Source: Desulfobacterales bacterium
GTDB lineage: Bacteria; Desulfobacterota; Desulfobacteria; Desulfobacterales; JADGBH01
NCBI GenBank assembly: GCA_015231595.1
Contig: JADGBH010000076.1
Span: 1-23,451 of the forward strand
DNA: 23,451 bases
Direction: 5' to 3'
The translations under genes and the position numbers were made by a program. This document shows positions 17,592 to 18,531 of the stretch, piece after piece. Below the pieces are notes generated by a model. It had not been told where the DNA came from. It did not search any database and saw only the letters and a list, made by a program, of their open reading frames with translations. Each line of letters starts with the position of its first letter. The first letter of the stretch is position 1.

Positions 17592-17609
17592 ATTTTCAGA
17601 TAGGCTCTA
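17592..17609. repeat. Left arm of a perfect 18-bp inverted repeat bracketing the MinD/ParA-like gene
   Basis: ATTTTCAGATAGGCTCTA, ending 3 nt before the ATG at 17613. It is the exact reverse complement of 18514-18531. Confidence 0.85.
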
Positions 17610-17612
17610 TCA

Positions 17613-18527
17613 ATGGAAAAAAAAAATCAAATTATTACTATTGTCGGTCCCAAGGGAGGTGTTGGTAAAACAACAATTTCAGCAAATCTATCCATTGCCC
17701 TATCAAAACTTGGTAAAACTGTTATTGCTGTTGACCTAGATCTTGGTGCATCAAACCTGCACACCCTTTTTGGTTTAAAAACATCAAAATTTACCCTTGA
17801 TGACTTTATCCTTGGTAAAATTAAGAGCCTTTCAGATATTATCGAGAATTCAAATATAAAAGGTTTAGGTATCATTTGCGGCGGAGATGTACCTGGTATT
17901 GCCAATTTGCATTATAATAGAAAAGTAAAATTAATGCAGCATTTATCAAAACTTGAATATGATTTTGTATTATTAGATTTAAGTGCCGGAGTTTCATTTA
18001 ATGTAGTTGATTTTATGATTATTGCCAGTGAGGGTATTTTAATAACTACCCCTGAAGTGCCTTCTTTGCTTAATGCGTATAGTTTTATTAAAACATTCAT
18101 TTTTAGAAGGCTTGGAATTTATTTTACTAAATCAAAACAAGATAAAATTCTTGAACTTTTAGAAATGGCTAAAGATTTTACGTCTAATCCGCATCTTAAC
18201 ACAATGAATGGGATTTTGGAACAAGTTAAGGTTATTAATCCGGATTCTGTAAATGCTATAAACAGGATTCTTGCAGCCTTTAAGCCAATTATTGTAATAA
18301 ACCGTGTCCGTTCGGATGATGATTTAAAAGTTGGAGAGGTTCTTAAAAATCTTATGAATCAATATTTGAATATAAAGACGAGCGTGATATTATCTGTTCA
18401 TGAAGATAACTCCGTAAGTCTTGCTATTGCTAAATTAAAGCCTGTAATACTTGAGTATCCATTATCTATTTTTTCTAAAGATATAAATAAAATAGCTTTA
18501 AATCTAAGTCTGCTAGAGCCTATCTGA
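17613..18527 (+). CDS. MinD/ParA-family P-loop ATPase (FlhG/MinD-like)
   Basis: 304-aa ORF with the deviant Walker A GPKGGVGKTT, then VDLDLGASNL and a Walker B DFVLLDLSAG. It has no SD. The start codon follows the left IR arm directly. The stop codon TGA (18525-18527) lies inside the right IR arm. Confidence 0.8.
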   Translation: MEKKNQIITIVGPKGGVGKTTISANLSIALSKLGKTVIAVDLDLGASNLHTLFGLKTSKFTLDDFILGKIKSLSDIIENSNIKGLGIICGGDVPGIANLHYNRKVKLMQHLSKLEYDFVLLDLSAGVSFNVVDFMIIASEGILITTPEVPSLLNAYSFIKTFIFRRLGIYFTKSKQDKILELLEMAKDFTSNPHLNTMNGILEQVKVINPDSVNAINRILAAFKPIIVINRVRSDDDLKVGEVLKNLMNQYLNIKTSVILSVHEDNSVSLAIAKLKPVILEYPLSIFSKDINKIALNLSLLEPI

Positions 18528-18531
18528 AAAT
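18514..18531. repeat. Right arm of the perfect 18-bp inverted repeat
   Basis: TAGAGCCTATCTGAAAAT is the reverse complement of 17592-17609. It overlaps the stop codon of the ATPase gene. Confidence 0.85.

Follow-up and report, generated by a model that had tools for sequence, protein, structure and literature searches.

Elements of the IS1031 and IS427 subgroups, as classified in ISfinder, are 800–1000 bp long, produce duplications of 2–4 bp, and carry GAG/Ga ends. Pairs of MITEs are known to flank integrons, whose gene cassettes each possess a single attC site, an imperfect palindrome of 57–141 bp located downstream of the ORF, within an integrase/attI context. Composite transposable elements have been formally defined (PMC10969869). 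Mobile insertion cassettes have been described with qnrS2 on Aeromonas plasmids (PMC5444012) and with passenger genes in Xanthomonas (PMC4337579). In Neisseria, the terminal repeats of Correia repeat-enclosed elements are co-transcribed with genes and form dsRNA that is cut by RNase III (PMC2649163).

The locus described here lies in a stretch of 23,451 nucleotides from a low-GC Desulfobacterales MAG, the whole of which was analyzed and is referred to as the window. A single ATPase gene is bracketed by the two arms of an inverted repeat, and the following features are distinguished:

17547–17566, plus strand: GC-rich hairpin GGGCGACCTGCCGGCCGCCC, from folding (−13.8 kcal/mol)

17575–17609, no strand assigned: left arm, identified from the inverted repeat and from 18-mer matches elsewhere as the putative right-end terminal inverted repeat of an IS5-family IS/MITE

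17613–18527, plus strand: ORF of 304 aa for a MinD/ParA-like P-loop ATPase, identified from Pfam CbiA and AAA_31 and from homologues

18514–18548, no strand assigned: right arm, identified from the inverted repeat and the left-end consensus as the putative left-end terminal inverted repeat of the same element family

The 18-mer ATTTTCAGATAGGCTCTA at 17592–17609 recurs as its exact reverse complement at 18514–18531, which confirms the 18/18 inverted repeat reported in an earlier note on this DNA and extends it, since this repeat is part of a longer one. The full arms are 38 nt (17575–17612 and 18511–18548) and are complementary at 35/38 positions with three mismatches, the longest exact run common to both being 18 nt. 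The 38-nt pair is a clear outlier and the best of all inverted repeats in the 23.4-kb window. With up to 3 mismatches allowed, ATTTTCAGATAGGCTCTA occurs in two copies in total in the window, and 0/100 shuffles contained two matches. A search of the 23-kb window that took in degenerate outer ends (up to 6 edits) and gapped matches revealed no further copies of the 18-mer or 35-mer above shuffle level, and no exact match to the longer arm specific to the window is present in the JGI metagenomes. Going by the base composition of the window, chance alone would produce 0.004 inverted pairs of the 18/18 kind within 1.2 kb in each window and ~0.9 in each 5-Mb genome; as an estimate for the 18-mer by itself, the previously proposed figure of 1e-8 is therefore too optimistic. 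For matches of 35/38 or better, however, the expected number is 8e-9 in a window and 2e-6 in a genome. Thus, the inverted repeat is real and not a product of chance.

Exact copies of the 18-mer exist at 41 genome loci from very diverse phyla, as determined by an exact scan of one genome per species, and a metagenome scan added 83 further stretches; a portion of these matches are chance or conserved-gene matches. The genome scan covered GTDB representatives, a set to which the source MAG does not belong, and found no exact 18-mer in the Desulfobacterales of that set. An inverted partner with at most 4 mismatches occurs upstream of the 18-mer, 46–1912 nt away, at 11 genome and 11 metagenome loci, and downstream of it at one genome and one metagenome locus. 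Elsewhere, the 18-mer serves as the right terminal inverted repeat of small MITEs of 46–280 nt. One MAG contains seven MITE copies, mostly ~168 nt, that end in the 18-mer and whose flanks are unrelated right after CTCTA. The 18-mer also forms the right end of a 943-bp element in the Nitrososphaeraceae MAG WHTU01000002 (locus L009), which encodes two overlapping ORFs (DUF4096 and DDE_Tnp_1) scoring above the cut-off of NCBIfam NF033580 (transpos_IS5_3). This is the one autonomous IS recovered with exactly this 18-mer. Annotated, plasmid-borne relatives of its transposase are the ISAzo38 family and a Roseomonas IS5 element, with ends that read GAACCTATC / GAGCCTATC and adjoin TAA, and the outer 9 nt of the arms match the ends of both.

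Independent left ends yield the consensus (T/A)AGAGCCTRTCTGAAAAT. The first two consensus positions vary between TA and AA and behave like target sequence, thus the element proper starts at GAG. The element termini read GAGCCTATCTGAAAAT..., with TA on the flank, and the repeat is ~35 nt in the window genome. Because the same 18-mer and the same ends bound both MITEs and an element encoding an IS5-family DDE transposase (transpos_IS5_3), the arms are, by sequence, identified as terminal inverted repeats of an IS5-family IS/MITE lineage. An IS630/Tc1-mariner origin, first guessed from the TA flanks, was dropped, as the autonomous element belongs to the IS5 family. The check for further copies of the 18-mer suggested in the earlier note, when run on other genomes, therefore uncovers a widespread repeat that is unrelated to gene boundaries, which is essentially the outcome named in that note as refuting its reading. 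The note had also stated that none of its interpretations corresponds to a standard annotated feature type; this is incorrect, as both the terminal repeats of transposons and the remnants of MITEs are routinely annotated under repeat_region or mobile_element.

In a low-GC (~30%) organism that recurs in many metagenomes, the 18-mer is located inside the near-palindrome GCCCATCTGAAT-ATTTTCAGATAGGC (L052, L055, L060–L063, L068, and ~15 further metagenome loci). The locus is conserved, and the near-palindrome there has the appearance of a MITE remnant reduced to its two repeats.

The direction of the termini determines how the gene relates to the elements. In the left arm, the element proper ends with ...GGCTC at 17607, and the aligned repeat continues to 17612. 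In the right arm, the aligned repeat begins at 18511 and the element proper at GAG (18516). TA adjoins both termini (17608–17609 and 18514–18515), one end per element. Elsewhere, the element body is found on the AAAAT side of TAGAGCCTATCTGAAAAT, and all complete elements recovered have TAGAGCC... to the left of the body and ...GGCTCTA to its right. The order in the window is ...GGCTCTA (17609), TCA, ATG, the remainder of the gene, CTGC, and TAGAGCC... (18514), and the partner is downstream, whereas it is upstream in 22 of the 24 partner-bearing loci. The body of the left-arm element would extend leftwards and that of the right-arm element rightwards. Rather than being outermost, with two ends enclosing an element, the termini are innermost and abut the gene. 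With the ORF adjoined by a right end on one side and a left end on the other, the gene is external to the elements. In addition, the two arms cease to resemble each other at the TA terminus toward the gene but remain similar for ~17 AT-rich nt beyond the 18-mer in the other direction, as is expected for termini facing the gene; longer terminal repeats in other members of the family continue in the same manner.

No outer (second) terminal repeat for either putative element was detected in the window, even with 6 edits, and a tblastn search with the L009 transposase found no transposase remnant in the window. The neighboring 187-aa ORF has no Pfam or NCBIfam match. As outer ends are missing, either two separate truncations or a permuted single element must be assumed. 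The best reading of the sequence is that the gene sits between what appear to be two solo or truncated element ends and is not the cargo of a miniature transposon. The earlier suggestion of mobile-element termini thus survives insofar as the arms are transposon ends, but the proposed cassette geometry is reversed, with the gene outside.

For the same reason, it is considered very unlikely that the gene is carried between inward-facing repeats as the passenger of a mobile insertion cassette or miniature transposon. This arrangement would account for a single gene bracketed by inverted repeats and found out of its usual genomic context, and mobile insertion cassettes with one passenger gene are known, such as that of qnrS2 (PMC5444012). 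However, the orientation is reversed relative to all 22 loci that have paired ends and to the named IS relatives, and the cleavage termini (TA|GAG) touch the gene instead of lying on the outside. The inward repeats and outer target duplications of a mobile insertion cassette are both lacking, with no direct repeat at 17574/18549. The locus also differs from an integron gene cassette, as the arms are 900 bp apart and flank the ORF, and no integrase is present in the window.

A discrete segment flanked by a 38-bp inverted repeat could alternatively be invertible, with a recombinase flipping 17610–18513 and turning the gene on or off relative to read-through from the VWA gene. Inversion would keep the coding sequence intact because both arms give the same tail. 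This explanation is nonetheless held to be very improbable, given that no recombinase or invertase is encoded among the 18 long ORFs scanned in the 23 kb, that a single orientation is at hand, and that the arms are already explained as transposon ends.

The GC-rich hairpin at 17547–17566 is positioned between the VWA stop codon and the left arm, in a genome of 31% GC. It has no U-tract and was not called by the terminator scan. MITEs of the same family possess GC-rich hairpins just inside the terminal repeat, and the similarity of the hairpin sequence to MITE interiors is at shuffle level and not significant. This hairpin may represent either the interior of the truncated left element or simply a terminator-like hairpin of the VWA gene. 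Its lack of a counterpart on the right side speaks for a further alternative, a template-switch fold-back in which ~38 nt of one upstream solo end were copied, inverted, onto the 3′-end of the gene. This event would be consistent with the sharing of 38 nt only and with the absence of more element sequence from either flank, but it would take a coincidence for the copied stretch to finish exactly where the transposon does, at TA. Three mismatches and a distance of 900 nt are also atypical for quasi-palindrome template switching, which is usually short-range, making a fold-back quite unlikely.

The ATPase ORF (17613–18527) starts 3 nt after the left 18-mer, and its TGA (18525–18527) is inside the right copy, both as the earlier note had described. 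With regard to the element ends themselves, the right end in the left arm stops 3 nt before the ATG, and the left end in the right arm starts within the fifth codon when counting back from, and including, the stop. The encoded protein contains a deviant Walker A motif, GPKGGVGKTT, at residues 12–21, and matches Pfam CbiA (3.5e-18) and AAA_31 (7e-15), both above cut-off. The KGGxGKT signature together with these domains identifies a SIMIBI MinD/ParA P-loop ATPase. It is not a bona fide MinD, as its scores of 87 for TIGR01968 and 112 for TIGR01969 fall below the respective curated NCBIfam MinD cut-offs of 213 and 202. Instead, the ATPase is a member of a MinD/ParA-like orphan family, which is labeled FlhG in some sources. 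Codons 302–304 and the stop (GAG CCT ATC TGA, E-P-I-stop) are read from the right terminal repeat. Whereas proteins of this family normally end 2–3 residues past IAxxL, the window protein continues with L-L-E-P-I-stop, and the C-terminal E-P-I tail is absent from all homologues.

The ribosome-binding signal of the gene is weak, with AGG 8 nt upstream and an anti-SD duplex of −2.9 kcal/mol, and several other genes in the window are equally weak in this respect. The prior description of the start codon as having no SD is therefore roughly right. A promoter scan found no promoter-like site upstream of the ATPase gene, a terminator scan gave two matches (17746 and 18881) that are away from the arms and near shuffle expectation, and Rfam yielded no match in the repeat/ATPase region. 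Nothing was found in support of duplicated operator half-sites, another possibility raised before.

It could also be proposed that the arms were exapted into a selected long-range RNA structure, pairing to occlude the start and/or to form an RNase III stem. When the 986-nt transcript is folded, the MFE structure and the centroid structure alike contain the predicted stem, with a duplex of −41 kcal/mol covering the weak AGG/start region and the stop codon, and cleavage by RNase III at Correia terminal repeats offers a precedent (PMC2649163; PMC10969869). However, any 38-bp inverted repeat would fold in this way, and both the locus of the nearest homologue (88.5% nt identity) and the other homologue loci lack the arms. 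No Rfam family matches, and as a single instance the stem does not allow for covariation. Selection for such a structure is thus regarded as unlikely. Transcripts spanning both arms could still form a 38-bp 5′/3′ duplex over the weak ribosome-binding region and the stop codon, though by prediction this duplex would be a by-product and not a selected device.

The closest relative of the ATPase (P0001; 91% aa and 88.5% nt identity) is found in another low-GC Desulfobacterales MAG (locus L001). Nucleotide identity to the P0001 gene is confined to 17621–18505, which places the homology break-points within a few nt of both repeat termini. The two genes differ by 68 synonymous versus 28 non-synonymous codon differences, indicating that the ATPase gene is under purifying selection. 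At L001, the gene is part of an operon in which an AAA ATPase gene, an 11-nt spacer, the ATPase gene, a 6-nt spacer, and a response-regulator/SpoIIE gene follow one another. In three other genomes examined, including that of Desulfamplus magnetovallimortis, the family is clustered with Volactin, HEAT, STAS, AAA, and SpoIIE genes, and the spacers upstream of the ATPase gene in L001 and these three genomes are 0–11 nt. None of the genes of this cluster is present in the window, and the repeat arms are absent from all homologue loci examined, the nearest one included. By comparison of these loci, the ATPase gene is out of its usual context in the window.

Several observations concern the homologous clusters themselves. 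The Volactin-type actin-like protein (PF25216) occurs in the ATPase cluster with HEAT-repeat, STAS, and AAA proteins and response-regulator/SpoIIE phosphatases (L001 and L043–L046), and the cluster may constitute a cytoskeletal or positioning module. The family member from the magnetotactic D. magnetovallimortis is annotated as a homologue of DMR_40820 of Desulfovibrio magneticus RS-1, for which a literature search returned no result. At L001, a resolvase and the N-terminus of a Tn3-type transposase (DUF4158) are located at 11255–12900, ~4.4 kb downstream of the ATPase operon; hence, the homologous copy is also near mobile DNA.

An origin of the arrangement by chance, or as a short-read assembly chimera at repeated MITE copies, is judged highly improbable. 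MITE families are a classic cause of assembly misjoins, and the window is the entire contig of a short-read MAG. Yet exact identity between the arms nowhere exceeds 18 nt, too little for them to collapse under the k-mer sizes commonly used; misjoining at MITE copies should yield complete MITEs instead of half elements; and the ORF is intact and under purifying selection. Chance is further opposed by the expectation given above for a match of at least 35/38.

The genes surrounding the ATPase have more distant relatives. Among 5.8 billion proteins, identity to the best relatives is at most 47% for PrmA and at most 75% for the VWA protein, versus 91% for the ATPase. This may point to a later acquisition of the ATPase gene than of the genes around it, a comparison weakened by the incompleteness of the MAGs, with no PrmA match at all from GCA_015232515.1, and by the 31% GC content of both MAGs. 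In the best homologues of the VWA gene (75%), the downstream genes are unrelated, so there is no usable synteny for an empty-site comparison, and the 187-aa neighbor forms a singleton cluster. The PrmA gene itself is located at 12895–13722 on the plus strand, and the lack of any homologue above 47% identity indicates that this low-GC Desulfobacterales MAG represents a lineage without close sequenced relatives.

Further genes are recognizable in the window. At 1604–4090 (plus strand), an 828-aa protein carries the Major Vault Protein shoulder domain and a Vault_3 repeat, along with a weak Band_7/SPFH match, and by these domains it is classified as a vault-like protein in a bacterium. A second P-loop ATPase, of the ParA/CooC-like type (257 aa), is encoded at 5135–6678 (minus strand) and overlaps by 4 nt with the gene for a 257-aa CdhC-domain (acetyl-CoA synthase beta) protein. 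At 19255–21032 (minus strand), an RtcB-family RNA ligase is paired with release factor H (prfH), both above NCBIfam equivalog cut-offs, a pairing already known as the RtcB-PrfH module. Apart from a tRNA-Leu (anticodon UAA) at 14401–14486 (plus strand), no RNA genes were detected in the window.

Taking as observed the repeat, the identity of its termini and the way they point, the positions at which homology ends, the tail encoded by the repeat, and the foreign context, the locus is probably the outcome of a transposon-associated relocation of one ORF that left behind two solo or truncated IS5-family ends. The normal home of the ATPase gene would be the tightly packed operon of the Volactin/HEAT/STAS/AAA/SpoIIE cluster. 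There, two copies of the element would have inserted in the tiny spacers on either side of the gene. The exact bracketing would arise because, in a packed operon, an element can insert without destroying a gene only in the few nucleotides separating a stop codon from the next start. The composite-like element-gene-element unit, or a circle derived from it, would then have moved to the locus of the VWA and 187-aa genes, where the distal parts of the elements would have been lost, leaving the ORF to take its final three codons and its stop from the right repeat. We infer the insertion, relocation, and loss steps, including the loss of the distal halves, as well as their order. A more far-reaching proposal, to which only slight probability is assigned, is that pairs of IS5-family MITEs in operon spacers act as a general device for lifting single ORFs. 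The retained ends might then form a dsRNA stem that insulates the landed gene through RNase III processing or translation occlusion, or might serve as a "reversed-ends" substrate from which a transposase could delete the gene.

Under the relocation reading, the locus looks like a fresh instance of a known phenomenon, namely IS5-family terminal-repeat remnants around a relocated gene. What appears as a gene in a perfect palindrome becomes a recognizable footprint of transposon activity and not a new cassette or switch. As a practical rule, the direction of transposon termini should be checked before a gene bracketed by inverted repeats is named a cassette or a switch. The locus also documents a MinD/ParA-like ATPase that would have moved as a bare ORF beside unrelated genes. 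If the source genome holds many ORFs flanked by element ends, MITE pairs would represent a route by which single genes are extracted from operons; unless the pattern recurs there, the locus is of modest interest.

The closest known systems are the IS5-family insertion sequences of the transpos_IS5_3 type and their MITEs, represented by ISAzo38 of Aromatoleum aromaticum EbN1 and the 943-bp element of WHTU01000002, with which the arms share the terminus GAGCCTATC(TGAAAAT) and a TA/TAA flank. Over 18 nt, the arms match the right end of the archaeal IS, and that of many MITEs, without a single difference. Unlike these elements, the window has one end of each, the ends face the gene, and neither a transposase nor a second copy is present. 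As in composite transposons or IS and MITE pairs, two copies of one element enclose a unique gene, which their inner ends adjoin and which is found away from its normal operon. In contrast to composite transposons, the window lacks detectable outer ends, which are needed for movement, and carries just one ORF as cargo, with boundaries that nearly coincide with its start and stop codons. The locus resembles mobile insertion cassettes in having a single passenger gene bracketed by IS-type inverted repeats without a transposase, but in those cassettes the repeats point inward with target duplications at the bounds, whereas the termini in the window face the gene. Finally, as with Correia elements, MITE terminal repeats would be co-transcribed with genes, with dsRNA predicted here and expression signals possible. 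In Correia elements, however, the two repeats of one ~100–150-nt element pair locally, while the ends in the window, 900 nt apart, would pair across the ORF.
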